Positions 2,228 to 15,713 of a stretch of DNA of 64,000 nucleotides are shown piece by piece. The DNA comes from Escherichia coli. GTDB taxonomy: Bacteria > Pseudomonadota > Gammaproteobacteria > Enterobacterales > Enterobacteriaceae. A program made the translations under genes and the position numbers. The notes under the pieces were generated by a model, which worked only from the letters and a program-made list of their open reading frames with translations, was not told the DNA's origin and ran no database searches. Each line of letters opens with the position of its first letter. Within the stretch, counting starts at the first letter, position 1. The DNA lies in NCBI RefSeq assembly GCF_011045215.1, contig NZ_CP049201.1; one strand, 5' to 3'.

Positions 2228-3041
2228 GTTTGCCCTTCTCCGTTAAAAATTCGTCGGGTAGTTTCTGAGGGGCGTAGATCGGCAGTGCATCGCAACTGCA
2301 ATAAACCTCCTCCCCGGCAGCAGTGATTTCGTCATAAAAACCATATACGGGCTTAATCAGCCCCTGCTCCAGCGCCCACGAATCGCGGAGGAGATAAATT
2401 TTCTCGTCGCGCTCTTTGTGGTCCTGTCGGTATTTGTAGCCCGGACGCCGCCAATTCGAATGCCAGCGCAGAGCAATCGCTCCACTCTGAACAGCCAGCA
2501 GATACTTAACGTTGCTTGCCAGCTTATGCCCCTGGTCAATTGCCACCCGACGACTGATAAAATCCATATCCTTCACGGATTTCTGAAACCCGGCCTTCAC
2601 TTCCCGGCGATCAATTTCGCTCACCCCGTCAGGCGGAATGGACGTAACCCAACCCTGAAAACGCTGTATGGTTTTCTCGATGGCCTGTTCTCGGTTGAGT
2701 TTTATCAGGTTGGCACTGGCGAAAATTCGCCTGTCGAGTTCCTTGCGAAACTCAGGTTTCAGTTTTTCAACAGTGATTTTTTTAGGGCCGTCAGGAGGCT
2801 GATCCCGTAATGCCCCGCCGTCGATGACAAGACGGCTGTAGATAGCGGTGAGGTGTTTTCTGGCTACGGTATCATCAGGGGTTTCTCGCTGAGCGGCTAC
2901 ACGGAGTTTCCGGCACCATTCGAGCAATGATTTTTCGCTATCCCACCCGTGATTTACGTAGTAGTTAACGGCATCCGTCAGAACCTCATACAGCGTCCTG
3001 ATCCGTTTCTTCTTCCTCACCGCCCGGCTGGAAATTGCCAT
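2208..3041 (-). CDS. phage head morphogenesis protein (Mu F / SPP1 gp7-like minor head protein); start uncertain
   Basis: ORF immediately downstream of portal in late operon; track ORF (2208-3179) overlaps portal so an internal start is assumed. Confidence 0.35.
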   Translation of the reverse strand: MAISSRAVRKKKRIRTLYEVLTDAVNYYVNHGWDSEKSLLEWCRKLRVAAQRETPDDTVARKHLTAIYSRLVIDGGALRDQPPDGPKKITVEKLKPEFRKELDRRIFASANLIKLNREQAIEKTIQRFQGWVTSIPPDGVSEIDRREVKAGFQKSVKDMDFISRRVAIDQGHKLASNVKYLLAVQSGAIALRWHSNWRRPGYKYRQDHKERDEKIYLLRDSWALEQGLIKPVYGFYDEITAAGEEVYCSCDALPIYAPQKLPDEFLTEKGKREFNRA

Positions 3042-4425
3042 CAGGCGTCTCCTGCTTCGGTGGTTCATAATTCGCCAGCGCGTCCACATCAATGATGAGT
3101 GGAGCTTCGCCATAGGTTTGCGTGGCATTAACAAGGCTTGCCAGCCATTCAGTGACGGCGGCACGGTTTTCAGGATCAACCTGTGGCGACACGGCAGAGA
3201 AAAGTGCTATCGCCTGTTGAATCACTTTACTGTCGCTTTCCCGGCGTTTGTCCGGCGACTCCTCCACCAGCTCCTGCCATGTCGCGGTAAATTCACGTCG
3301 CCACTGGTAAAACGTGGTTTTATAGTCATCAGTTATGATGTCCGGGTAATCATTTTTCAGCGACTGATAAAATTCCTCGTTCCAGGCGATGTACTGCACC
3401 AGGCGTTCGAAATAATCCATCACGGGTTCAATCTGCTGGCGTACACCATCGATATACTGGCTGATGGCTTTCGAATCTTCGGTCCCCTCACCGAAACCAT
3501 TCGAAAAGGCTTCCTCTTTGATGAGGATCGCCGGAACGTCACTCCCTGACGCAATATCGGAAATAATATTGTCGCGTGCAGCGTTTAGCGCACCATCGAT
3601 GTTTTGTAGATTTAGCGAGGTAACGTCCTCATCCTTCCCGATACTAAGCACACCTTTATTTTTTGCCTCTTTGACGTTTTCCCTTTTTCGTCCCGTGGCG
3701 GCAGCCATGATCCCGTCAAGTTTCGAACCGTACTGCACAACTTTAGCTACCAGTACGCCCGCCTTCTGGCTGACGAGATCATTCGCCTCCATCGTGTTGA
3801 TATAGGATTTCAGGGAATAAAGAACGCGCTGAAACACACTTCGTCCGGTGAATCCGAACGATGAACTCTGAAACTCCAGATAAATCGGTGTGCCGTTGAA
3901 GATTTTCAGTGTGCGTGACGGATGCCAGTCTTTCCCACCAATCTTCAGTTTTTTATTGGCTTCCTGGAAAAACGGGCTGTTGGGGTTCTGGTCAGTCACC
4001 ATCGAACCGGAAGCGTTCAACGGGTCCCACGCGTTGATATACACGTCATCTTCTGTCAGTCCGAACGTCGGAAGCGGTTCACGACATGGAACGCTGTCGG
4101 TGCCCACGCCGATCGCTGCAGCACCGTAGCAACGAGACAGAAAAAACAGATTTTTAATCTTCTCGTTGACCTTCATGCGTTCCCATACCTCCTGAAAACG
4201 CCTCACAACCCTCTCGTCAGGGTCTGTCTCCACGTTATACTGGCGCGGCTTACACATCGCCATCAGTATGGGTTTTTCGACAAGTTTTCCGCCCAGAGGA
4301 TGGAATTGCCACAGCTGCTTACACAATTCATAGCCAATGTCGGTTCCCGGCTGAATTTCTTCAGCCTCAAGAATACGCATCAGTGCCGAACCGAGGCCGC
4401 CAGTAATCTCGATCTCTGCCATCAA
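2986..4425 (-). CDS. phage portal protein, 479 aa
   Basis: Large ORF directly downstream of terminase large subunit with acidic C-terminus; canonical position of portal. Confidence 0.55.
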   Translation of the reverse strand: MMAEIEITGGLGSALMRILEAEEIQPGTDIGYELCKQLWQFHPLGGKLVEKPILMAMCKPRQYNVETDPDERVVRRFQEVWERMKVNEKIKNLFFLSRCYGAAAIGVGTDSVPCREPLPTFGLTEDDVYINAWDPLNASGSMVTDQNPNSPFFQEANKKLKIGGKDWHPSRTLKIFNGTPIYLEFQSSSFGFTGRSVFQRVLYSLKSYINTMEANDLVSQKAGVLVAKVVQYGSKLDGIMAAATGRKRENVKEAKNKGVLSIGKDEDVTSLNLQNIDGALNAARDNIISDIASGSDVPAILIKEEAFSNGFGEGTEDSKAISQYIDGVRQQIEPVMDYFERLVQYIAWNEEFYQSLKNDYPDIITDDYKTTFYQWRREFTATWQELVEESPDKRRESDSKVIQQAIALFSAVSPQVDPENRAAVTEWLASLVNATQTYGEAPLIIDVDALANYEPPKQETPDGNFQPGGEEEETDQDAV

Positions 4426-4439
4426 AAATATCCTGATTT

Positions 4440-5768
4440 TTACAACTCCGCGTAATTACCGTGCGCGATGATCAATCCATAGGTGTAACAATCGAAAAGG
4501 TCATCAGCACGTTTATGCGCGTCTTTGTCTGCCAGGTGGAACCCGGCGATTTGTTTGATGAGGTGGTTTGCGGTTGTGCGCTTGAATGAAACGGTTTTGT
4601 CGTAAGCCTCGCGGGTAATTTTGCATTTACCCTGGTAATGGTGGCTGGAAGCCAGCACCGCGCGCTCGTCTTTCCCTTTGCTGGTTAACGCTGATTTAAT
4701 CGGCGTCATATCCCAGCCTTCGGTTTCCGCTTTCTGGTTGAGGATTGCGCCCATTGCGGCATCCTCCATGAATACCCCCTGACTCCCCAGGCGCGGGCGG
4801 CAGAGTTGCGCCAGCCGCTCGAGGTTGTCATAAACACCGGGGATATACTCAGGAAGCAGCGACGCTTTAATTTGCGTCACATCCCAGTCGATAACGGTCA
4901 GTTTCGGCTCATCGGAATACGTGGACTCATACGCGAAGTAAACCACGCCTGTCCCGTCGTTCTCCGTCCCGCCTTTCAGCGCCGTATCCATTACCGCAAA
5001 AATCATGTCGCAGTGTCGCGGCATCTCAACCGGCTGGCCATCCACCAGCAGCTTATCGACATCGAGTAACGCGTCTTTGGACCAGTCTACGAACTCTGCA
5101 AGATATTCCTGCTGCCAGACGCGCGGATCGGATTTCTTCTCCGTTTCCTCCAGTTCTTCTTTCGGAATATACGGATTCGATGAAGTTGGCGCATGGTGCA
5201 TAACAAATCCCAGGGATTCATCGTGGCATATCGCGTAGAAAAAATTGCTCTCGTCGATACCGTTTGGTGTGGAAAATACCCACGCACAGCCGCGGTAATC
5301 GACAAGCGTCGGGCGTATCGCTCGGGGCCAGATTTCCTCGAGCATTTCCGGCGATTTAGTGAATGCGGCCTCATCAATCAGCACAGCGTGATATTTACGC
5401 CCACGCCCGGCCAGTTTGTTATTGTCCGTTACCCAAAAGTCGATGCGCCCCCCATTACGGAGAATGATGCGCTTTTCATTTTTTGACTGACTGAGGATCA
5501 GCGGTTGCAGAACGGCGCTAATTTCATCCCAGATTTCCTGGTACTGGCGGTATTGCGCGGTAAAAATCCCCACCCTACCCGCGATAAGTTGCCCGGTGGT
5601 AGGAACGGCAAATTTCCGCGTAGCGAAACTGGTAGCGATGTTCACCAGCATCACCGTTTTACCCCAGCGACGACCACAGCATACCGCGTGGAAGCGTTCC
5701 TCTATTGCCGCCGTCCATGCAGCTATTTGCCCCTCATGAGGTTTTGGGAGGTAGATTTCAATCGACAT
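4440..5768 (-). CDS. terminase large subunit, 442 aa
   Basis: Walker A-like motif CGRRWGKT near N-terminus, acidic nuclease-like C-terminal half; follows the small-subunit gene with a 4-codon overlap. Confidence 0.75.
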   Translation of the reverse strand: MSIEIYLPKPHEGQIAAWTAAIEERFHAVCCGRRWGKTVMLVNIATSFATRKFAVPTTGQLIAGRVGIFTAQYRQYQEIWDEISAVLQPLILSQSKNEKRIILRNGGRIDFWVTDNNKLAGRGRKYHAVLIDEAAFTKSPEMLEEIWPRAIRPTLVDYRGCAWVFSTPNGIDESNFFYAICHDESLGFVMHHAPTSSNPYIPKEELEETEKKSDPRVWQQEYLAEFVDWSKDALLDVDKLLVDGQPVEMPRHCDMIFAVMDTALKGGTENDGTGVVYFAYESTYSDEPKLTVIDWDVTQIKASLLPEYIPGVYDNLERLAQLCRPRLGSQGVFMEDAAMGAILNQKAETEGWDMTPIKSALTSKGKDERAVLASSHHYQGKCKITREAYDKTVSFKRTTANHLIKQIAGFHLADKDAHKRADDLFDCYTYGLIIAHGNYAEL

Positions 5769-6849
5769 TATCCACTCCCGGCATCGGCAGAGAGTTGTGG
5801 ATAATTATTTCGTTATTCTCACCACCCACGCCTTTTTTGAGGTTTTCAATCTCAGTGCGCAGCTTTTCGTTGCGAAGCCTCAGTCCTTCAAGCTCCAGAT
5901 CATTGCGACTGTCAGTTGCACCACCAGCAGAACTTCCTTTCGTCGCCATTATCAGCTTGATAAGTTCGCGCCGGGCGGCAGCCTTATCCTCCAGCAGGAT
6001 CTCAACACCAAATTTCCCGAGCTTTGCCCCTGCATATAATTGTCGCGCATCCCCATCAAGCAGAGTGGTATCAGCCATATAAAGCTGTCCCGTTCCCTCA
6101 CCGCAGCACTTCGGACAATCCGGATTGGGTATGGCGTTATCAACAAAGCCGAGGCCTCCATATTCCGGCTCGGGTTTGCCATCTCTGGAGGCCTGTGCCG
6201 CTGCCTTATCGAATTCTGCAATATCACGCCACTGGTAGAGGTGATTCTCGCCCCAGCAATAACGGCAGTTAACACGGCGAAATTGTGCCAACTGATTGGG
6301 GTCGGCCTGGACAATGGCCATCAACTGACTCACCAGTAAATCCAGGTCTGCGGTATAGCGTTTCTGATACTGATTGCGGAAGTAGCTGATAGCACGATAA
6401 ACCCTGGCATTTCTAAGCATACGGCTGGCGTTGCTGTTAGCTGTCGCACCTTGCCCCTCATAACCAGCCAGTCGGTATGCCTCTGTCGGCTTTTTCCCCT
6501 GAGCAACAAGCATCGCAAACTTAGCCTGCTGGTCAGAAATGCCGAATTCATCGGGGCAGAACGAAAATTCCTCCGCGTCGCCCTCATTCAGGCACGCATC
6601 GGATACTGGCTTTTTTTTCTGAGATTTTCCGTTCCGCTTTTGCGCAGTCTGCGCAGATTTTTTCTGCGCACTTTGTTGCGCAGTTTTGCGCATTTCTGTC
6701 TGCGCATTTTTCGGAGGTTTTTTGATGTAACGACGGGCTGTTGCGTAATTCAGTCCCCTTGCCTCACACCATGCCACCGGGGATACACCGGAGCGGGTGT
6801 ATTCAGCAATATATTCCTGCTGCAACGCCCCCCAGTCCGGTCTGCTCAT
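5758..6849 (-). CDS. terminase small subunit-like protein, 363 aa
   Basis: N-terminal HTH-like region, basic Lys/Gln-rich linker, position immediately upstream of terminase large subunit. Confidence 0.5.
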   Translation of the reverse strand: MSRPDWGALQQEYIAEYTRSGVSPVAWCEARGLNYATARRYIKKPPKNAQTEMRKTAQQSAQKKSAQTAQKRNGKSQKKKPVSDACLNEGDAEEFSFCPDEFGISDQQAKFAMLVAQGKKPTEAYRLAGYEGQGATANSNASRMLRNARVYRAISYFRNQYQKRYTADLDLLVSQLMAIVQADPNQLAQFRRVNCRYCWGENHLYQWRDIAEFDKAAAQASRDGKPEPEYGGLGFVDNAIPNPDCPKCCGEGTGQLYMADTTLLDGDARQLYAGAKLGKFGVEILLEDKAAARRELIKLIMATKGSSAGGATDSRNDLELEGLRLRNEKLRTEIENLKKGVGGENNEIIIHNSLPMPGVDNVD

Positions 6850-6852
6850 TAG

Positions 6853-7062
6853 TTAGTCCTGATTTTTATCCACCCTGAGTAGTTCACGCAGGGCAAAGGC
6901 ATCCCCTTTTCTGGCAAGCTTAAACAATGCCGCCCGTAGTTCGGCTTCACCTTTCGCTCTGCCCTTACGGATGGATGCGTAAAAATCTGTCATTGCTTCC
7001 CGATTTTCTTTCAGTCGGTTCAGATCAACATCCAGAACGTCAGCGATTTGTTGTGCAGTCAT
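6853..7062 (-). CDS. small HTH-like phage protein (about 69 aa from internal Met)
   Basis: Short ORF between GT-A-like gene and terS; alpha-helical basic sequence; start chosen to avoid overlap with upstream gene. Confidence 0.3.
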   Translation of the reverse strand: MTAQQIADVLDVDLNRLKENREAMTDFYASIRKGRAKGEAELRAALFKLARKGDAFALRELLRVDKNQD

Positions 7063-7990
7063 CCGGCACGCTGCCAGAGACTCGACTTTCGAATACGGAA
7101 TCATTTGTCACCCCCATTGATATGCAGGGTGTCTTCTTCCTGTATTTTTCGTGAAGGATTTTTACTGCAGCGTTGTTCCAGGTGACCTGATGGTGAATGC
7201 GTTTATGGCTGGCCCCCATCAGTGAGATTTTTACGCACGAGGGCGCATACATGACGGAGTAAAAACTTTTAACGTAGGTTCCGGAATCCAGATACAGCTC
7301 GGTCATTCCGCCGCTGTTTTTCTGCGTCTGTTTCTGCCCTAACTGGACAGCACCGATCGTCATAAACAATTCACCACAGCGACCGAGATTCGTGTACGTA
7401 TTCACATCCTCGTTAATGCGCCCCATGAATGAGAACGGTCGATCAACCGAACAGATAAAGCTGTTCATTGCCTTGCGTTTCACCCACGAAGCATGGCCGC
7501 CATTGTCACCAAGAAAATCCCCGCCCTGCGACATAGCGATGGAAAGCGCAGGTATTGATTCGTAGTACGCCAGCATTTCAGAAAGGATCGCATCCAGTTT
7601 TCTTATCGGGAAATAGGCCTGGTCATAGTTGCGATCCACCCGAAACTGAAACTCGTGATAATCATCATCGAGCTGAATGAAGTATTTACACCCGACCAGT
7701 TTTGCCAGGTCGAAACAGGCATTACGGGCGTAAAAAATTGAGCGGCGATCACCGAAATTATCGGCTTCGTCAAAACGACTGGCTATATCGGCTTTGGAAA
7801 ACACCAGCACCTGTTCACCAAATTCAGCTATGTACTGATGCCGTGTCTTATCTTCATCATCAACAACGATAAAAATTTTCCCGGTATAGCCAGCACGACG
7901 CAACGTCCGGTAAGTCAGAACTTTGTCCGGTCGCCCGTGAGTCAGAATAAAGGCGCAAAAATCATCACGCATATTCCTCCTCCCCGCCAT
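7040..7990 (-). CDS. hypothetical protein with GT-A-like (nucleotide-diphospho-sugar transferase-like) motifs, about 310 aa
   Basis: N-terminal FILTHGRPD...IFIVVDDED and a later LDDDY (DXD-like) motif resemble GT2-type glycosyltransferases; translationally coupled to the upstream ParB-like gene. Confidence 0.35.
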   Translation of the reverse strand: MAGRRNMRDDFCAFILTHGRPDKVLTYRTLRRAGYTGKIFIVVDDEDKTRHQYIAEFGEQVLVFSKADIASRFDEADNFGDRRSIFYARNACFDLAKLVGCKYFIQLDDDYHEFQFRVDRNYDQAYFPIRKLDAILSEMLAYYESIPALSIAMSQGGDFLGDNGGHASWVKRKAMNSFICSVDRPFSFMGRINEDVNTYTNLGRCGELFMTIGAVQLGQKQTQKNSGGMTELYLDSGTYVKSFYSVMYAPSCVKISLMGASHKRIHHQVTWNNAAVKILHEKYRKKTPCISMGVTNDSVFESRVSGSVPDDCTTNR

Positions 7991-8753
7991 GCATGATCTC
8001 CACCATACGCTGCGTCATCCGGACAAAACCATTTTCGATGGCTTGCTGATAATCAATGATCACCAGTGCCGACTCCTCAAAAAGGCCCTGAATTTCAGCG
8101 GGGGCGTGAGCGTAATAGTCTGCAATTCTGCTGAAATTAAACACCGTGTGGCGTTCTGCCGCGCACAGGAGGAATTTTTCGATATCAGGCTCAAGGGACG
8201 CCGTACGTATCCGGCTGACCAGCTCCTGAGTTTTCGTATCGTCGTACAGTTCACTGATATCCGGTTCATCCCCTGACGGCTCATAAACAGGCGTATCAAT
8301 TTTCGTCGTGTACGGCTCATCCTCATTCGCTGTACCTGGCAAAACATCCGTTAATAGTTCGTCAATTTCTGTCGGGCAGAATCCTGTCAGGGAGATATCA
8401 AAATCAGCATTGATTAGGTCCGACAGCTCCATCCGTAACAGATCTTCATCCCAGCCAGCACTCATCGGCAGGCGATTATCAGCCAGGCGGTACGCCTTTT
8501 TCTGATCATCCGTCAGACCAGACAGAACAATGACCGGAACCGAATCCATTTTGAGCGCCTCAGCCGCCATAACACGCCCGTGCCCCGCAATAATTTCACC
8601 CTTTTCATCAATCAGCACCGGATTTGTCCAGCCGAATTGCTTAATGCTTTCAACCAGCTGTGTCACCTGTTCAGGAGAGTGTGTCCTTGCATTGTGCACA
8701 TACGGAGACAACTCTTGTAACAGTCGATAGACAATATTCAATTTTTCGCTCAT
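7965..8753 (-). CDS. ParB-like nuclease domain protein, 262 aa
   Basis: ParB/Srx-type N-terminal domain (…VHNARTHS…IIAGHGR motif); start at the ATG preceded by a GAGG Shine-Dalgarno. Confidence 0.6.
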   Translation of the reverse strand: MSEKLNIVYRLLQELSPYVHNARTHSPEQVTQLVESIKQFGWTNPVLIDEKGEIIAGHGRVMAAEALKMDSVPVIVLSGLTDDQKKAYRLADNRLPMSAGWDEDLLRMELSDLINADFDISLTGFCPTEIDELLTDVLPGTANEDEPYTTKIDTPVYEPSGDEPDISELYDDTKTQELVSRIRTASLEPDIEKFLLCAAERHTVFNFSRIADYYAHAPAEIQGLFEESALVIIDYQQAIENGFVRMTQRMVEIMHGGEEEYA

Positions 8754-9226
8754 ACAACCTCGCTTTATGAATAAAAAACTAACAGCAGCCAGTGGAGAGC
8801 ATTTATCATTAACATTTACAGATAAGATGACGTACATCATTGAAACGCCATTAAGCTATATACCTGCAGCATTTGTAGTTGCACTCCGCAACTCTGCGAC
8901 TACGGTTATAAAAGCATTGGCAACTTTTGCCACCGGCAAATCTTCCATGGATTTCCTCTGCCGGTTTTTTATTTTCGTCGATGCATAACATTGCATTTAC
9001 ATCAATACCGTCTATTGTCATAAGTATGTTGTACCGATGCTCGGGTGATATTGGCGGTCTTCGCCAGCCGGTTCTGTGTAGTTGCTCCCTGTGACCGGTT
9101 TTTTATTTCTCACATTACAGCAGCCCCTCACCAAAGGGCTGCTGTAATGCCTGCTGTTACTCACAAATCAGACCATCATGATCACCGCTCATCCCTGGAC
9201 TGTTCCCGCAGTCGGAGTTTTGTTTT

Positions 9227-9508
9227 TCATTTACTGGTATGAGTTCTGCATCGGGCTATTTCATTCCGGGCCTTACTGTCACCGCGACAGATACAACGCA
9301 CCGTGTCTCCGGTCAGCGTGGTAATGTAAGCCTCATCCTCTTTTTCTACCGAAATACATGGAATATCCCAGCCCCGGCAATACTCAATTTTTGCTGCCAA
9401 GTGAGTGTCACGCGGATAGAACTCCAGACGATACATATCCCCCAGGACATGCACTTCCTCAACCTGACGGCCATCTTTAGTTACCGTTATTTTTTTCAGT
9501 GCGTACAT
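9227..9508 (-). CDS. Cys-rich hypothetical protein, 93 aa
   Basis: ORF with GGAGG Shine-Dalgarno 7 nt upstream of the internal ATG (MYALKK...), located just after a terminator-like hairpin downstream of the endolysin. Confidence 0.4.
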   Translation of the reverse strand: MYALKKITVTKDGRQVEEVHVLGDMYRLEFYPRDTHLAAKIEYCRGWDIPCISVEKEDEAYITTLTGDTVRCICRGDSKARNEIARCRTHTSK

Positions 9509-9575
9509 ACGTACCTCCGTTCTTTCGTTTTTTGAGTAATAAAAAAGGCCGCCACAGCGACCTTTGCCAGTACGT

Positions 9576-10121
9576 TTACAAACCAACGCGCGCTTTCATC
9601 CAGCCATAGACAAACGACTCATTGGCCTCGCGTTTCTCTGCCAGCTCCAGATAACGCTCGCCCTGCGTACAGTTCAGGGCTTTCACCAGTACCAGTTCAC
9701 CATCCCTGCTGCGATTTTTCAGATATGCCCGTAACGCATTAAGAGTACGCGGCCCGATGCGTCCATCTGCATCCATATCCGGATAGAGTTTCCCGCGCAG
9801 GTTGAAAACGTTCAGCCAGCGTTGAAGCATTCTGGACGCCACAGTTGGCCCCATGTTCACGCCCGTATCGCACAACTCTGAGGCAATATCCGGAGACAGG
9901 TTCGCAACCAGGTCGAATCGTGGTCCGTACCAGTAGTCCGCCTCGAGTATTTCCAGCGCCTGCTCACGCGTCAGGTCACGCATATCGCCATGATAACCGT
10001 GTGCGCGGGCAACTTTTTCAGTAATGCCCCATCTGGTCGGTCCACCTTTATCATCCGGATGATTGATGTAACCGCCCTCTTTTCCCAGAATTTCGTCAAA
10101 AATTTCATCTTTCGACTTCAT
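9576..10121 (-). CDS. endolysin, GH108-like lysozyme with peptidoglycan-binding domain
   Basis: Motifs EGGYINHPDDKGGPTRWGIT (GH108-like) and a C-terminal PG-binding-like region; downstream of two membrane-protein genes. Confidence 0.65.
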   Translation of the reverse strand: MKSKDEIFDEILGKEGGYINHPDDKGGPTRWGITEKVARAHGYHGDMRDLTREQALEILEADYWYGPRFDLVANLSPDIASELCDTGVNMGPTVASRMLQRWLNVFNLRGKLYPDMDADGRIGPRTLNALRAYLKNRSRDGELVLVKALNCTQGERYLELAEKREANESFVYGWMKARVGL

Positions 10122-10122
10122 A

Positions 10123-10413
10123 TCAGCGCCTTCGTAATACAAGGATTTTTGATACGTTCCCGCGTGCTCGTATCACCAGCACGCAGAACACCAGGTTAAT
10201 CAGGACGACCAGCCAGTTACCGGGTGGAAAGCGACCACACAGATAACAAAGCGGCGCAAAGGCATAAAGCAGCATCAGCAGCCAGGCCAGCCACGACATC
10301 AGCGGTTTATGTCTCGACTCACCACGACGATAAAAAAAGAGCGTCAGCACGATAACCGTGCTTAACACCACATTCAGTAATCCGGGAAGGTTACTTAACA
10401 TTACCGCCTCCAC
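10123..10413 (-). CDS. holin-like small membrane protein, 96 aa
   Basis: Two to three predicted hydrophobic helices and a basic C-terminus; immediately upstream of the endolysin. Confidence 0.45.
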   Translation of the reverse strand: MEAVMLSNLPGLLNVVLSTVIVLTLFFYRRGESRHKPLMSWLAWLLMLLYAFAPLCYLCGRFPPGNWLVVLINLVFCVLVIRARGNVSKILVLRRR

Positions 10414-10780
10414 CCCGCAGACGGGAGAACAGCCCGGATACCAGCGATGCGATATCCTGCTGGTGGATGAATGAGAGAATCTTCACTGACACCACCGATA
10501 CCAGTACCGCACAAAGCGCGTCGAGAGATGTGCTGTGGAGATTCAGTTTTTCAACCAGGTAAGACGCCATCACATCCGCCCCCAGCACGCCAACAATGAA
10601 CGACACCAGAAAATGCGCTGCCACACGCCAGACAGAAATCTTCTGTGGTATCGTGGCCACAAACAGCGCCCCTGCGAATGCACCAAACACAATCCCGAAA
10701 TCCGTTCCGGTAAACAGCCCGAATACCGTCGCCCCGCCGAGCGCCGCAGCCGTGCCGGAACCGGATAAGGGTTCAGACAT
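10391..10780 (-). CDS. holin (three predicted TM helices), 129 aa from MSEPLSG
   Basis: Internal ATG preceded by a GGAG Shine-Dalgarno; three hydrophobic segments; first gene of the lysis cassette. Confidence 0.5.
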   Translation of the reverse strand: MSEPLSGSGTAAALGGATVFGLFTGTDFGIVFGAFAGALFVATIPQKISVWRVAAHFLVSFIVGVLGADVMASYLVEKLNLHSTSLDALCAVLVSVVSVKILSFIHQQDIASLVSGLFSRLRGGGGNVK

Positions 10781-10796
10781 ACTTTTTCTCCTGTCA

Positions 10797-10822
10797 ATAA
10801 AAAAGGGCCTCTGTCGGCCCGT
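10797..10822 (-). terminator. terminator-like hairpin immediately upstream of the holin RBS
   Basis: gggcc-tctgtc-ggccc stem-loop followed on the minus strand by a T-run. Confidence 0.4.
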
Positions 10823-10856
10823 AAAAAAACACCCCGTCAAAGGCACCCGCAGATAC

Positions 10857-10900
10857 CTTTTGTGTGGTGTTATCTGGTGTTTTCTGGTGTGGTGTGTGCA
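10857..10900. repeat. GT-rich (TGGTGT)n-like degenerate repeat, CA-rich and G-poor on the transcribed minus strand
   Basis: Direct reading: ttttgtgtggtgttatctggtgttttctggtgtggtgtgtg. Confidence 0.6.
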
Positions 10901-10946
10901 GGACACAGATGTGAAAAAGGTCCGCTGGTACGAACCCTGTATATGG

Positions 10947-10975
10947 ATAAAAAAATGCCCGTCAGGAGACGGGCC
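10947..10975 (-). terminator. rho-independent terminator-like hairpin
   Basis: gcccgtc-agga-gacgggc stem-loop followed on the minus strand by a run of 7 T. Confidence 0.5.
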
Positions 10976-11277
10976 AGAGCATTCATCGTGTAGTAATAGA
11001 ATTATATTTATATATGGTCGCCACCAGAATGAGTCGTCAACCTACAAAGCCATCCTGGCTTACTGTACGTGTGCGCATGGAACAGGTAACGACTCATTCT
11101 GCTAACGACGTTTACAAGTAATAATCACATACCATTATGTAATACAAAAAAAAGCAGCACTGAAACTGTAACCGTTCAGATATTACAGCATGAAGAAAAA
11201 CAATAGTACCTACAAAGCTGTTCTCCGCGAAAATTCGCCAGTGCTGATAAAGCTATGCCTCGTTTGTTTTACAGGAG

Positions 11278-11349
<72 letters not shown>

Positions 11350-11352
11350 ATA

Positions 11353-11428
<76 letters not shown>

Positions 11429-12036
11429 GTTGGTTCCTCGGGAGTGAGATGAGATGCCCCGATACATAATGTATCATTCCCTCGGAACCACAAAAATAAT
11501 ACTAATAAATAATCAGGATGCAATATTTACCAACTATGTAATTGTAAATTTGTTTGAATAAAAAAATTACTAAACACGCCATACCCCCCTAAAAAGGGGG
11601 TCGTAATAATATAAGTGATACTAAACATCACATTACTAAATACATTGTATTAAGCTGGCGACCCGATGCGTAATCCCTTGATATTAAAAACTCCAAACAA
11701 AATCAGAATGCCATCTAAATACACAAAAAGCTGGCTTCACACCACCCTGTATGTGAACGCAGAACTCATCACCCCACGCGCTTTCGCAGCCAGTACACAA
11801 CCTGTGTCAAACGCTGGCAGATGAACAATGAAACTGCCAGCACGGTCACCTATCTTAGTTCGCGTCTCGCATTCTGCTTGATAATAAGTTTCCCGTTCTT
11901 CTCTTATTGTGCATTTCTCAGTTTATCTGTCAGTAGCATTTTGACATACCAATAATTCCTGTCGAGAAAATCAGTGAGCTAAAAAACCGTATTCACAGCC
12001 TCGGGCACGTTTAACGTACCGCACCACTTTTCGGGC

Positions 12037-12062
12037 GTAAAAAAACCCGCATTAAGCGGGTT
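12037..12062 (-). terminator. rho-independent terminator just downstream of the Q-like gene (tR'-like)
   Basis: acccgc-ttaat-gcgggt stem-loop followed on the minus strand by 7 T; lies about 80 bp after the Q-like stop. Confidence 0.55.
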
Positions 12063-12144
12063 TTCAGGTGTCCATGTCTGCTATACGCCTCGTGATACAG
12101 CTTTACGAAGCGTACCAAAATTGAAGCAGTTTGTACGTAAAAAA

Positions 12145-12687
12145 TCAAGCCATTTTTTGAGCAAATGATTCTCGCATGGGAATGTATAGCGCATACTCAG
12201 CAACAGCCAACCAATTAGCAATTCGCTTTTCGCATGTGCTAAAACACCACTCTGGGTGTGCATCATTTAGCAATTCAGCCATTTTTCGCTTAGTCATCCC
12301 CCGCCCCTCATAGCGTTGCCGGAGAATACAAATCAATCCCGGATGATCCGCCATAACTTCGCCAATAACTCTGTCGATTATTAATGCCTCTGAATCGGCA
12401 CAATGTGCCAGCCAGCTCTTTTGCTTGCCGTTAATCATATCCCGCAAAAAAGCCTCAAGTTCAGGCTTGTCCAGACCTGCTTTTTTCATCCTCCGGAGCG
12501 CCTCGTTAATTGCCGTTTTTGTCAGCTTTTTAGAGGTCAACATCTGGTTAAACATATTCCCTGTCTTACCGCCACCAATATACGACCAGCGCCCCCACAT
12601 ACGCAGTTTTCCCTGAATCCAGACACTTTCCAGCGTAGTGAGACGAAGGTGTTCTCCGCTTTTTCCTGTATTCGTTGGGTAAATCAC
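12145..12687 (-). CDS. putative late-gene antiterminator (Q-like), about 180 aa, GTG start
   Basis: Last gene before a promoter-terminator region, the tRNAs and the lysis cassette; GTG start with AAGGAGG Shine-Dalgarno 7 nt upstream; assignment is positional. Confidence 0.4.
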   Translation of the reverse strand: MIYPTNTGKSGEHLRLTTLESVWIQGKLRMWGRWSYIGGGKTGNMFNQMLTSKKLTKTAINEALRRMKKAGLDKPELEAFLRDMINGKQKSWLAHCADSEALIIDRVIGEVMADHPGLICILRQRYEGRGMTKRKMAELLNDAHPEWCFSTCEKRIANWLAVAEYALYIPMRESFAQKMA

Positions 12688-12974
12688 AAATATCCCTCCT
12701 TTCTCCAGATTTCTTGTGTGCGAAAAACACCTTCTGCATGCATCAGGCGCAATTCTTCTTTGGTGTAATCGATGGTTTTTACTCTCCCGTCGATTAAATC
12801 GTGGCACGAGCTACAGGCAATCGCCGCCTGCATATCGTGTGGTTTTGTCGCTGTTCCACACGTCCCCGCCAGCCTGTAATGTGCCAGCACAGACGTTCCG
12901 GGATTGTGATTGCAGTAGCCAGGAATTCTGACCTGGCACATCTGGCCCCGCGCCGCTTTACGCAAATTCACCAT
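12684..12974 (-). CDS. DUF1364-family protein (YbcO-like putative nuclease), 96 aa
   Basis: Cys-rich motifs CQVRIPGYCN...HYRLAGTCGT...IACSSCHD as in lambdoid YbcO/NinG-region proteins. Confidence 0.55.
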   Translation of the reverse strand: MVNLRKAARGQMCQVRIPGYCNHNPGTSVLAHYRLAGTCGTATKPHDMQAAIACSSCHDLIDGRVKTIDYTKEELRLMHAEGVFRTQEIWRKEGYL

Positions 12975-13585
12975 TACGCAAACTCCAGCAGCTGCGCGGC
13001 CACATTTTCGACTTGTTCCGGAGAGGAAAATTTACGGAACAGGATCCAGTTCCACAGCACATTCAGTACAGATTTATAAACCTGCTGAAACTCGGTTTCG
13101 TCCATATTCGCAAACGCGATTGATTTCGCCCTGCGCCCACGGCTACCATCCGGATAAAAATGCTCGGTGTAAAATCCGGCCTGAATGATTACCCACTCGC
13201 GGAAAGCGTCAAATGACTTAAGCAATGCCGTATCCCGGGTTCTGCGTGTCGCAACTGTATTCAGATATTGCTCTGCGGCTTCGCTCAGAGCTGGCGTATG
13301 TTCCCGGCCTACTGATTCACACAGGTAATCAACGAATCCTGATACCATTTCTCGTTCTCGAGGTGTGATCGCCCCACCGATCGGAGTCCAGTAATCGAAT
13401 CCCAGTTGCAGGAGTTTGAAAAAACGCTTGTGGAATGCGTAGTTACGCACACGCTTAAAGTCTGCGTGTATCCACTCACCTATTTTGATTTGATACAGAA
13501 AATCGCAACTCTCCGGCGTCGCCGGGAGAAGTAATCCGGAAGAGGTTTGTTTGACCAGTTGTATATGCGCCATTGCTTTCTCCAA
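12974..13585 (-). CDS. nin-region hypothetical protein (DUF1367-like), 203 aa
   Basis: ORF in the nin-like block upstream of the Q-like gene; family assignment is a recollection, not verified. Confidence 0.35.
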   Translation of the reverse strand: MEKAMAHIQLVKQTSSGLLLPATPESCDFLYQIKIGEWIHADFKRVRNYAFHKRFFKLLQLGFDYWTPIGGAITPREREMVSGFVDYLCESVGREHTPALSEAAEQYLNTVATRRTRDTALLKSFDAFREWVIIQAGFYTEHFYPDGSRGRRAKSIAFANMDETEFQQVYKSVLNVLWNWILFRKFSSPEQVENVAAQLLEFA

Positions 13586-13632
13586 TAGCGCTGTAGGTTG
13601 CCAGGTGTTCAGGCTGGCTTACGAATTATAAC

Positions 13633-13806
13633 TCATTCCCAAACTACCTTGAAACCGAGCCTTTCCAGGTATTCAATGAATGCCTCGATAGATAAAATTA
13701 CATGATCATCAGGAATTAACGTTGCGTAGATAACTTCCCCATTCTCAACGCGCACAGCATAGAGGCCATTTTCACTAAAAATTTCACGCAATTCTTCGAT
13801 TTTCAT
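13633..13806 (-). CDS. small hypothetical protein, 57 aa
   Basis: Internal ATG (MKIEELREIF...) preceded by an AGGA Shine-Dalgarno. Confidence 0.3.
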   Translation of the reverse strand: MKIEELREIFSENGLYAVRVENGEVIYATLIPDDHVILSIEAFIEYLERLGFKVVWE

Positions 13807-13970
13807 CAGCAGAATCCTTCTGGATAAATAACTTTCCCCTGTTTGGGGGCCATCCCTCTTCTCCCTGCGCGCCAATCAAGTAATGAGATTCTATTTCCCC
13901 CGTAATTAGCCTCAAGAACAACAAATCACAAAAACACAAAAAGCCTGTTTGATTAAAAATAATCGTAACA

Positions 13971-13992
13971 AAAAACCCGTCGAAGCGGGTTA
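13971..13992 (-). terminator. rho-independent terminator downstream of the hok-like gene
   Basis: aacccgc-ttcg-acgggtt hairpin followed on the minus strand by a T-run. Confidence 0.5.
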
Positions 13993-14059
13993 AGTACGGG
14001 GGCGTTGAAGATGCCTGACACATCAGAGGTGGCGGGAGATTTCTCTCCCGCCAGGTCTC

Positions 14060-14197
14060 TTACTCCTCAGGTTCGTAAGCTGTAAAGACAGCGACCTCCG
14101 TCTGACCGATTCGGATTTGTACCTCACAGAGGTCTTTCCTCGTTACCAGTGTCGTCACTATGACGGTTAAACAGATGACGATCAGGACGATTAACAT
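14060..14197 (-). CDS. hok: Hok/Gef-family type I toxin (RelF/HokD-like), 45 aa; not in the supplied ORF track
   Basis: Translation MLIVLIVICLTVIVTTLVTRKDLCEVQIRIGQTEVAVFTAYEPEE has the Hok signature: hydrophobic helix, then LCE...EVAVF...YE. Confidence 0.8.
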   Translation of the reverse strand: MLIVLIVICLTVIVTTLVTRKDLCEVQIRIGQTEVAVFTAYEPEE

Positions 14198-14654
14198 CAC
14201 CTTTTGCTACTTTATAGCCTGCTATGCCTTTCATGCATTCTTGGCTATACTAACCTTATACCTACAACACGAGAGACGCAGAAATGACCGTTCATGGCAT
14301 ATCAACAGGCAGTATCGTTCACTTACGTGAAAAAGATGGAGAATGGCTCGTAGTGCACATTCTTAATGACGACATTGTATATGTCCTCAAAAATGCAGAT
14401 TCAGGTGAAGAAATAAAAGTCACTCTTCAAGACATCAATACACCCAATAAATAATCCCTCCACAATCCCACGGGGGGTATTGTTCTTCTTATCATCACAA
14501 CCGCATCACACCACCAATTGCTCATTGCAGACAACACCCCAGCCATGCTACTCCTAAACGGTTTTATAGTGCTATAGCCCCGGATGTCTGTTGTCGTCAA
14601 CAGACATAACAAGCTAAAATAACAACACTCCCCAACAACGAAGGACTTAATACC

Positions 14655-14942
14655 ATGGCTCAGGTCTATTTTGATACTCTGAAATTCGTTGAAACCCTAG
14701 AAGCCGCCGGAATGCCTGCAGCACAAGCTCGCGCCATATCTGCTGCAGTAAAGGATTCTCACGAAGCGGCAGAAGTCGCTACAAAGCGCGACCTGAACGA
14801 TGTTAAAACTGAACTAAAAAATGACATTGCTGCCATTGATGCAAAAATTGATAAACTCACCCTGCAACTGACTGTCAGATTTGGCGGGATGCTCGTCGTT
14901 GCTGTTGGCGCACTGGCAGCCATCATGAAGCTACCTCTTTAA
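14655..14942 (+). CDS. DUF1640-like coiled-coil protein with C-terminal hydrophobic segment, 95 aa
   Basis: Plus-strand gene inside a minus-strand operon; AAGGA Shine-Dalgarno; followed by its own terminator. Confidence 0.5.
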   Translation: MAQVYFDTLKFVETLEAAGMPAAQARAISAAVKDSHEAAEVATKRDLNDVKTELKNDIAAIDAKIDKLTLQLTVRFGGMLVVAVGALAAIMKLPL

Positions 14943-14973
14943 AAAACCAGCCCTAATGGGCTGGCTTTTGTTA
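14941..14973. terminator. bidirectional rho-independent terminator
   Basis: ccagccc-taat-gggctgg hairpin flanked by an A-run upstream and a T-run downstream on the plus strand. Confidence 0.55.
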
Positions 14974-15050
14974 TCCCCAGCAGAAAATCGAATACACCAC
15001 CAGCGCCACCGCCATCGCAATTCCTGCCGTTGTGAATGCTTCAGGCCAGG

Positions 15051-15413
15051 TCATCGTAAAACATCCTCCACGCTTGTCAGTCCGTTTCGCTCCAGGTAGT
15101 CCATCGCCTTATCCGGCAATTTGCAGTCCGGCTTCGCTTTCCTCAGTTGCCAGGCTAACTGCTTTACCTGCATAGTTAACTCGTCGACCAGACGCTGATA
15201 CCCCACTGGTTTGTATTCATAAAATTTACCAACTGGCGCTGCTGCCAGCGATTGCAGTGCAATTTCCAGAACAGCAATATCCATCTTATATGCGCGAATG
15301 AGGTCATGGTCGATTGTGCCTGGTATGCACAGTCTCTGTGATTCAATAGCCTCCTCTGCGTGGGCTATTAACTGCTCTTTGGTAAACCGTTCTTCTTTGG
15401 TCAAAGTCGCCAT
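15051..15413 (-). CDS. hypothetical phage protein, 120 aa
   Basis: ORF in the nin-like block; no recognisable motif. Confidence 0.4.
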
Positions 15414-15587
15414 TTACTCTTCCACTTCGTCTTTTATTTCGTAAATTGAGTAATTGCAGTGATTAAAGAAAACATCAATTGCCTCGTTTTCTATTTCCTC
15501 AGGAGTCGCATCATCATCCACTTCAAATACATCTTCACGCACGTTACCAACAATCCTCGTTTCGATAACTATTTTGAATTTTCGCAT
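15414..15587 (-). CDS. small acidic hypothetical protein, about 57 aa
   Basis: Internal ATG (MRKFKIVIETR...); start uncertain. Confidence 0.3.
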   Translation of the reverse strand: MRKFKIVIETRIVGNVREDVFEVDDDATPEEIENEAIDVFFNHCNYSIYEIKDEVEE

Positions 15588-15713
15588 TGTCTTACCGCCC
15601 TTTCGGGCGGCCTCCTGATGTTTTGAGGGTGCAGAAATCCCTCCGGTTAAGGATTTAATAAAAATCACTTCTGATTTAAATTTCAGTGTCTTATTGTCAG
15701 TTTGTTTATCGCT

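Follow-up and report, generated by a model that had tools for sequence, protein, structure and literature searches.

A mosaic junction in an Escherichia coli lambdoid prophage combines a late accessory gene, a boundary hairpin and a lambda-type right-end spacer parted from its cos site

What lies between the lysis genes and the packaging genes at positions 8754-9508 of the window, the 64,000-nucleotide stretch of Escherichia coli DNA analysed here? A first-pass annotation had described a palindrome-rich gap with little coding potential that might hold a cos or pac site, a terminator set or a regulatory RNA, next to a Cys-rich 93-aa gene in the position where lambda carries bor. Every gene around the interval is transcribed from the minus strand, in the late region of a lambdoid prophage (Table 1) whose TerL is 97% identical to its counterpart in phage Rac-SA53. 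The best overall explanation, and in our judgement a probable one, is that the interval is a late-operon segment of a mosaic lambdoid E. coli prophage. It is an ordinary mosaic junction made up of a late accessory gene, a deletion scar, a boundary hairpin and a stranded lambda-type right-end spacer. The gap had been put at about 390 bp. If the ParB-like gene starts at ATG 8753, which has a GAGG ribosome-binding site and yields the 262 aa annotated in relatives, its actual length is 473 bp (8754-9226); the shorter figure matches an upstream ATG at 8840, located past a homology break at 8795.

Table 1. Features of the late region in and around the interval, in window coordinates.
Feature	Position	Strand	Description
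TerL	4440-5768	-	Terminase_6N
TerS	5758-6849	-	Terminase_2
83-aa ORF	between TAGT and TerS genes	-	
TET-associated glycosyltransferase (TAGT)	7040-7990	-	
ParB-like gene	7965-8753	-	ParB_N
ParB leader	8754-8794	-	with GAGG ribosome-binding site; recombination junction with spacer at ~8795
Unit A, 5' part	8795-8931		conserved, non-coding; its homolog in lambda-like prophages lies just inside cosQ
Terminator 1	8932-8975	+ (antisense)	ACCGGCAAATC...GATTT....TGCCGGT, then T6-A-T4
Unit B, 5' part	8976-9066	+	weak promoter-like pair TTGCAT (8991-8996), 16 nt, TATTGT (9013-9018)
Terminator-like element 2	9067-9108	+ (antisense)	CCGGTT...GACCGG stem, long loop, then T6-A-T3; weak
Module-boundary hairpin	9113-9149	-	14-bp perfect stem 9113-9126 / 9136-9149, 9-nt loop
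Deletion scar	9150-9192	-	~400-860 bp of relatives missing between 9162 and 9193
Conserved 3' flank, 34 bp	9193-9226	-	BLAST to C5, Stx2k, H10407
93-aa late accessory gene	9227-9508	-	ribosome-binding site GGAGG at 9514-9518
Intrinsic terminator	9544-9565	-	between GH108 endolysin and 93-aa gene; AAAGGTCGC-TGTG-GCGGCCTTT, then TTTATT
Endolysin	9576-10121	-	GH108/PG_binding_3
Holin	10123-10413	-	Phage_holin_3_7
Holin	10391-10780	-	Phage_holin_8
tRNA-Thr + tRNA-Gly	11277-11428	-	
Q-like antiterminator	12145-12807	-	DUF1133/Phage_antitermQ

Most relevant to the origin of the gap are the prophages that share it. Over 8795-9600, prophages in eight E. coli genomes match the window at 99.6% identity, for instance that of BCE049, which (99.2% identical over 8795-8931) carries a lambda-type Nu1/gpA/gpW/portal module where the window has ParB. 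More broadly, 8795-9170 is found at 84-99% identity in ~285 of 5426 complete E. coli genomes (~5%) and in phages cdtI and phiSTEC1575-Stx2k; for 8795-8931 the identity to these ~285 genomes is 84-90%. Homology breaks at 8795 in every lambda-type relative, and C5 has the same junction as the window. A further 120 IMG/VR loci were retrieved with a 29-nt pattern from terminator 1 (8928-8956), the invariance of which among these relatives is by construction. Across the 118 loci with enough flank, from IMG/VR and from the earlier searches, the sequence to the left of the 8795 equivalent reads ...CCCGCGAGGTCGCCGCCCCGT.GC...CACCGGAA(A)GGACCCGCA..., the reverse complement of lambda cosN plus cosQ, with cosN ~50 bp from the break; cosQ-cosN-cosB-Nu1 immediately adjoin the spacer in the relatives. 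BLAST against the joined lambda ends matched the Stx2k phage at 95% identity over 283 bp, a stretch that starts 50 bp short of the right end, crosses cosN and cosB and reaches into nu1, and matched H10407 and BCE049 at 72-76% identity, while the window gave no match. Further, the 12-nt cosN sequence GGGCGGCGACCT has no match with two or fewer mismatches in 5984-15605, and the cosQ motif GGACCCG, found in every aligned relative, is not in the window. Downstream, the window has ParB_N, TAGT, Terminase_2 and Terminase_6N in place of the Nu1/gpA terminase, and the same ParB swap occurs in three C5-type genomes.

These comparisons identify 8795-9170 as homologous to the final ~370 bp of the mature chromosome in lambda-like phages, and ~320 bp of it (8795-9112) are homologous to the non-coding stretch before cosQ-cosN of lambda-like prophages. 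A recombination close to cosQ, within a few bases of it, swapped cos and the lambda terminase for ParB-TAGT-TerS-TerL. Because cosQ, cosN and cosB have been replaced by these genes, no cos site is present. The junction at ~8795 reads as a clean module exchange that left a lambda-type right arm joined to a probably headful packaging module.

This exchange bears directly on the suggestion that the palindrome-rich region is the packaging recognition site of the phage, whether cos or pac. Its location just upstream of the packaging genes speaks for such a role, as do the cosQ and cosN sites that adjoin homologous DNA in relatives. However, cosQ, cosN and cosB are exactly the part that was replaced, with ParB in their position and no cosN-like 12-mer nearby, and the spacer and hairpin adjoin at least four unrelated packaging modules (Nu1/gpA; HNH plus Terminase_4; ParB plus Terminase_2/6N; and others). 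Further, nothing of 8795-9112 is found in DH5alpha-type prophages that have the same ParB module, and the TerL belongs to Terminase_6N. The replacement of cos, taken with the DH5alpha-type prophages, speaks strongly against a packaging role for the window's spacer, and that the region as a whole is the recognition site is very improbable. In headful phages the pac site usually lies inside or beside terS, with a series of headful cuts. Given a TerL of Terminase_6N type, packaging would start elsewhere, probably from a pac site in or near terS, the headful (pac) assignment being drawn from the terminase family alone. For annotation the gain is that a packaging site should not be assigned to 8754-9226.

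The gap was said to lack a convincing ORF, and this description holds, as we found no conserved ORF and the corresponding DNA of close relatives carries no NCBI pipeline annotation. A conserved start is seen for one ORF only, from ATG 8827 on the + strand, and its best pN/pS is 0.5-0.64. We rejected it as a small protein since its C-terminal half falls in three frames among the variants, one of which stops after 25 codons, and its match to phrog_17793 (E = 0.002) was judged to be an ORF call on homologous DNA. Minus-strand ORFs of 46-56 aa were also set aside, being neither conserved nor matched to any family.

What the gap does hold on the + strand is a pair of terminator-like elements. An intrinsic (Rho-independent) terminator consists of a GC-rich stem-loop with a U-tract directly behind it on the strand that is transcribed. 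Terminator 1 closes unit A (8795-8975), and here the 7-bp stem around an 8-bp palindrome and the T-run of the first-pass annotation can be read directly: ACCGGCA (8932-8938) pairs with TGCCGGT (8959-8965), TCCATGGA lies inside at 8944-8951, and T6-A-T4 occupies 8965-8975. As + strand RNA this element forms an interrupted 12-pair stem (-13.5 kcal/mol, z = -2.4). The palindrome itself is not conserved, most relatives having TCAATGGA. At 8930 the sequence CCACCGGC is one base off Chi and was discarded as a Chi site. Unit B (8976-9108) is an optional unit of 134 bp flanked by a 14-bp direct repeat, CCGGTTTTTTATTT, at 8961 and 9095; phage cdtI and many of the loci lack it, and 125 of 5426 E. coli genomes carry it, always unannotated. 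We rejected the idea that unit B is a mobile MITE, as it occurs in 1-3 copies per genome and always in the same context. The terminator-like element 2 at its end has a fold z of only -0.37. A terminator set, the second of the roles first proposed, is thus found at 8932-8975 (+) and 9544-9565 (-), with weak evidence for 9067-9108 (+). The two + strand elements may block antisense transcription into the lysis genes or may mark the ends of short leftward RNAs; nothing that lies upstream on the + strand is known to require a terminator.

Short leftward RNAs would make the spacer a locus of one or two regulatory RNAs on the + strand with weak sigma-70 promoters and U-tract terminators, the candidates being of ~60 nt (~8913-8972) and ~80 nt (~9025-9105) and sharing the position and orientation of lambda bor. 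Many E. coli prophage sRNAs have been found only recently (PMC8550237; bioRxiv 10.64898/2026.05.13.724894), and the spacer has been retained in the window and three C5-type genomes despite the loss of cos. Terminator 1 is convincing on the + strand only, and its single variable stem position, with one A-to-G change, retains a G-U pair on that strand alone. A PWM scan of six haplotypes also found two weak promoter-like pairs that are conserved in position, TTGCAC-16-TA(C/A)GGT with its -10 at 8901-8906 and TTGCAT-16-TATTGT with its -10 at 9013-9018, the latter below the threshold of a standard scan, and the PWM scores are at a level that chance can give in a 500-bp region. However, a sigma-70 scan of 8500-9800 gave no site at a 9-of-12 threshold on either strand, and Rfam searches of 7500-13000 and 8740-9240 at permissive E-values returned only chance-level matches in the interval. 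RNAalifold on unit A found no covariation outside the terminator, the DNA beside the putative start of the first RNA is the most variable and indel-rich part, and the second candidate would end in the weak terminator of an optional unit. The probes for PasA-D (PMC8550237, table S6) have no match in the window, and the Pas sRNAs were excluded; a literature search returned nothing relevant on prophage sRNAs near cos and no full-text match to the sequence of the element. With weak promoters, no Rfam family and no probe or literature match, an sRNA locus is a possible reading that we hold to be unlikely.

Conservation of the spacer has to be weighed for this reading as well as for a second one. 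Pairwise divergence within the spacer is 0.05-0.11, against a synonymous divergence of 0.45-0.55 in the neighbouring gene, and this ~5-fold difference, which favours an sRNA, is partly a sampling artefact of fetching loci by an exact 29-nt pattern within the spacer. Among the 5426 complete genomes no E. coli match to 8795-9170 falls under 80% identity. The low divergence could reflect recent spread by recombination instead of selection. The spacer could then be functionless hitch-hiking DNA, derived from a leftward gene with terminators that is now in decay, kept by its position between selected modules and by recent spread through recombination. Such a history would suit the indels of 1, 2, 3, 8 and 134 bp among spacer variants, a best-frame pN/pS in the range noted above, as for decayed coding sequence, the uncoupled histories of spacer and neighbouring gene (L063 versus L076) and the lambda-type phages that join the hairpin almost directly to cosQ, with neither unit A nor unit B. 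We nevertheless think it unlikely, as divergence stays at or below ~20% in the ~285 genomes against ~50% at adjacent synonymous sites, long blocks such as ATCATTGAAACGCC are invariant, and the terminator structure is preserved. That the spacer diverges so much less than neighbouring synonymous sites is mildly unusual.

The second hairpin of the first-pass annotation, placed near 9113-9140 with a 10-bp stem, does exist, but its perfect stem is of 14 bp and the structure spans 9113-9149. As minus-strand RNA it forms 18 pairs, with folding energies of -25.1 (+) and -30.6 (-) kcal/mol (z ~ -6.3; 0 of 200 shuffles as stable). It does not qualify as an intrinsic terminator, since neither strand continues into a U-tract (minus strand, UGAGAAAUAAAAAAC; + strand, CCUGCUGUUACUC). 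The stem is kept in 16 sequence variants: under the 18-pair model 89% of cells pair, compared with at most 63% in slid controls, and three pairs have changed on both sides (e.g. C-G to A-U and C-G to U-A), these compensatory changes stemming from two related lineages only. Pair counts are similar for both strands (89.2% vs 90.3%), and folding energy is the only discriminator between them, with the minus-strand RNA more stable in 16 of 16 variants.

After an independent IMG/VR scan with a hairpin-only pattern, 177 phage loci were found to carry this hairpin. Across them it starts, on the late strand, 2-12 nt past the stop codons of at least ten unrelated genes, the C-termini that precede it including ...LIRE, ...GRY, ...VMQ, ...VVTE, ...AKLG, ...CTQN and ...TVK. 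Immediately downstream lie cosQ (almost directly), the unit A/B spacer, the P27 HNH gene, ParB or other genes, the ribosome-binding sites of the last beginning ~20 nt away. Since the hairpin sits so close to the stops of unrelated last genes of the lysis module, we regard it as most probably an RNA element within the late transcript. It would fold in late mRNA and, rather than terminate transcription, might serve the lysis-gene message as an intercistronic 3' stabiliser or as a site of processing, and its constant sequence may serve as a recombination linker between modules. Its recurrence at lysis-module ends across many mosaic phages is mildly unusual. A bolder account, in which the spacer is a leftward sRNA gene pair in the bor slot and the hairpin a widespread lysis-module boundary RNA selected for its structure, strikes us as doubtful.

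Between the hairpin and the 93-aa gene the window has lost DNA that its relatives keep. In relatives the 34-bp flank at 9193-9226 comes after the 93-aa gene or straight after the endolysin, and at the equivalent of 9162/9193 these relatives carry an insert of 859 bp in C5, ~400 bp in the Stx2k phage and a similar length in H10407. Encoded in the inserts are a membrane peptide of 37 aa whose C-terminus is hydrophobic, a lipoprotein of 51-60 aa (lipobox LVGC) and a phiP27 L33 homolog of 98-130 aa; these three match phrog_4493, phrog_7528 and phrog_1935 (families without an assigned function). At 9157-9171 the window retains just the last codons of the L33-like gene, L-I-C-E-stop. The three small genes for the membrane peptide, the lipoprotein and the P27 L33-like protein have been deleted from the window. 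We found no membrane-anchored or lipoprotein ORF in 8754-10121 that could be a spanin (Rz/Rz1 or unimolecular), and a putative spanin pair of the relatives (the 37-aa membrane peptide and a 51-aa lipoprotein) falls exactly at the deletion site of the window. The prophage of the window and its BCE049-type relatives are without the small membrane-peptide and lipoprotein genes of related lysis cassettes.

Beyond the scar, the 93-aa ORF was correctly called as a gene. The protein matches phrog_33497 with E = 7.9e-53 (residues 1-93 on profile positions 1-95 of 95), with no sequence match in Pfam, NCBIfam or PDB. That the ORF is a real gene on which purifying selection acts follows from an in-frame pN/pS of 0.19 in eight E. 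coli haplotypes, where the out-of-frame values are 1.07 and 1.72. Among 5.8 billion proteins searched, 51 homologs were recovered, which come from Escherichia, Salmonella, Edwardsiella, Hafnia, Proteus, Providencia and Xenorhabdus. Their alignment has a conserved core of ~78 aa, MYALK..GR.VEE...LG.MYRLEF...AYITTLTGDTVR.ICRG, and many homologs stop earlier and lack the C-terminal helix. AlphaFold2 with the family alignment (pLDDT 88.5) predicts seven beta strands and this C-terminal helix, and the predicted all-beta fold gave no informative fold match. In every context examined the family lies on the late strand in late-region slots, namely the endolysin-terminase interval in E. coli and Edwardsiella and the Q-holin interval in Proteus and Xenorhabdus.

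A third structure, absent from the first-pass annotation, stands ahead of this gene: a terminator scan found an intrinsic terminator at 9544-9565 (-12.5 kcal/mol, z = -2.8). C5 and the Stx2k phage keep a hairpin and T-run at the equivalent position with a different stem sequence, and the 35-nt stretch before the 93-aa gene is invariant in relatives whose stem differs. With only 35 nt from the T-run to the start codon, we infer that the 93-aa gene has no promoter of its own. Q-modified RNA polymerase would pass this terminator, and the 93-aa protein would be produced late in infection.

The gene had been read as a moron in the position of bor, with six Cys that hinted at metal binding. A Cys-dependent metal binder or a bor-like lysogenic-conversion factor could draw on the five Cys that the 93 residues in fact contain (positions 44, 51, 72, 74 and 87) and on a location past the lysis genes. 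None of the Cys columns of the family is conserved, however, and the invariant columns contain no Cys: the sole frequent Cys column, C74, alternates with Ser, and the homologs of Proteus, Xenorhabdus and Providencia lack the other four and have termini that precede C87. A Bor-like lipoprotein moron has a signal peptide with a lipobox, its own promoter and an orientation against that of the late genes. In the 93-aa sequence there is no signal peptide, lipobox or hydrophobic N-terminus, and the gene, unlike lambda bor, shares the late-gene strand downstream of the endolysin, directly behind a terminator that leaves no space for a promoter of its own. Together with the Q-holin location in Proteus and Xenorhabdus, these findings make a metal-binding or bor-like role scarcely credible. 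The 93-aa ORF is a real late gene, not a Cys-cluster protein and not an analogue of bor.

Finally, these elements can be set beside known systems. The 93-aa protein is a full-length member of phrog_33497, a family without an assigned function, with no difference noted. Among the Hfq-dependent prophage sRNAs, PasA-D, AgvB, AsxR, Esr41 and StxS share with the spacer candidates a lambdoid intergenic setting and a 3' stem-loop with poly-U. Unlike the spacer, however, the sRNAs named are encoded near Q, the holin or stx, or inside structural operons, and the spacer candidates, known from sequence alone, match neither Rfam nor the probes. Such an sRNA gene would have a promoter of its own, a discrete transcript, a terminator hairpin with its U-tract and a conserved seed; of these the spacer offers a terminator and weak promoter-like sequences. 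The phiP27-type lysis cassette consists of two holins, the endolysin and L31-L33, followed by HNH and cos. The window shares its Phage_holin_8 and Phage_holin_3_7 pair and the same hairpin after the L33-like gene, of which it keeps the last five codons; unlike phiP27, which has an M15 peptidase, it has a GH108 endolysin, its L31-L33-type genes are deleted, the 93-aa gene is inserted and another packaging module comes next.

Intercistronic stem-loops that stabilise or process mRNA, such as REP-type hairpins and lambda sib-type RNase III sites, offer a parallel to the hairpin of the window, which is stable and GC-rich, has no U-tract and lies a few nt past a stop codon within a polycistronic operon, its pairing upheld by compensatory changes. 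In sequence it is unrelated to REP and sib, and the resemblance would be one of possible mode of action, not of membership. The lambda right end runs Rz - bor - non-coding DNA - cosQ - cosN. Unlike lambda, the window has no cosQ, cosN, cosB or Nu1/A and no bor-like lipoprotein gene, its leftward elements being terminators only, and no similarity to its spacer could be detected in lambda 46.4-48.44 kb. As in lambda, however, the spacer lies between the last lysis-module gene and the position of cos and, like bor, includes a leftward-facing element, and ~25 bp at 8795-8820 still resemble the lambda sequence ...GATGATAATCATTATCAC just inside cosQ.

Three further genomes of E. coli (C5, F2_407_2_2 and OkiPb01716) share the junction between the lambda-type right-end spacer and the ParB gene of the packaging module, and the ParB gene of C5 is annotated as a truncated pseudogene. 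In our prophage, the gene for a ParB_N-domain protein is followed directly by one for a TET-associated glycosyltransferase, and this minus-strand pair (7040-8753) immediately precedes the terminase genes TerS and TerL. Between these genes we saw no gene for a TET/JBP dioxygenase. Together, the ParB_N protein and the glycosyltransferase may form a DNA-modification cassette tied to packaging. A further small ORF of 83 aa adjoins TerS and matches the TerS family phrog_309 in the middle of the profile only (positions 145-218 of 319), so that a TerS fragment produced by splitting or duplication is one possibility.

Features of the packaging, lysis and Q-to-holin regions (window positions unless a relative is named)
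Feature	Position	Strand	Remark
83-aa ORF	6853-7104	minus	just upstream of the 363-aa TerS
TET-associated glycosyltransferase	7040-7990	minus	PF20691, E 1e-34
ParB_N-domain protein	7965-8753	minus	
Lambda-spacer/ParB junction	8795		
Same junction, E. coli C5 prophage (L002)	2797-3054		
Deletion scar	9150-9192		
Small lysis-cassette genes in relatives	L002 3459-4317; L004 2860-3724		
Sub-threshold Rfam matches	12037-12123 and 10950-10999	minus	
tRNA-Gly(TCC) and tRNA-Thr(TGT)	11277-11428	minus	

The TerL of Actinobacillus phage vB_Apl-pPE4 (PP818812.1) is 97% identical to that of our prophage, and the hairpin that follows the last lysis-module gene is present there as well. Its recorded host is Actinobacillus pleuropneumoniae. 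The entry has the look of a phage of the E. coli type.

The lysis cassette of the window holds no spanin-like genes. A scar of ~30 bp occupies the exact site at which relatives carry three small genes, encoding a 37-aa membrane peptide, a 51-60-aa lipoprotein with an LVGC lipobox and a protein like L33 of phage P27, and the same deletion is common to BCE049-type prophages.

Just downstream of the Q-like gene we observed sub-threshold Rfam matches to Trp_leader (25 bits), P9 (20 bits) and isrK (19 bits), with another to AgvB (22 bits) upstream of the holins. A known prophage sRNA, or a short transcript of the pR'/tR' kind, might be located at these sites. Two tRNA genes separate the Q-like gene from the holins, in the slot that in Stx phages holds tRNAs and the toxin.
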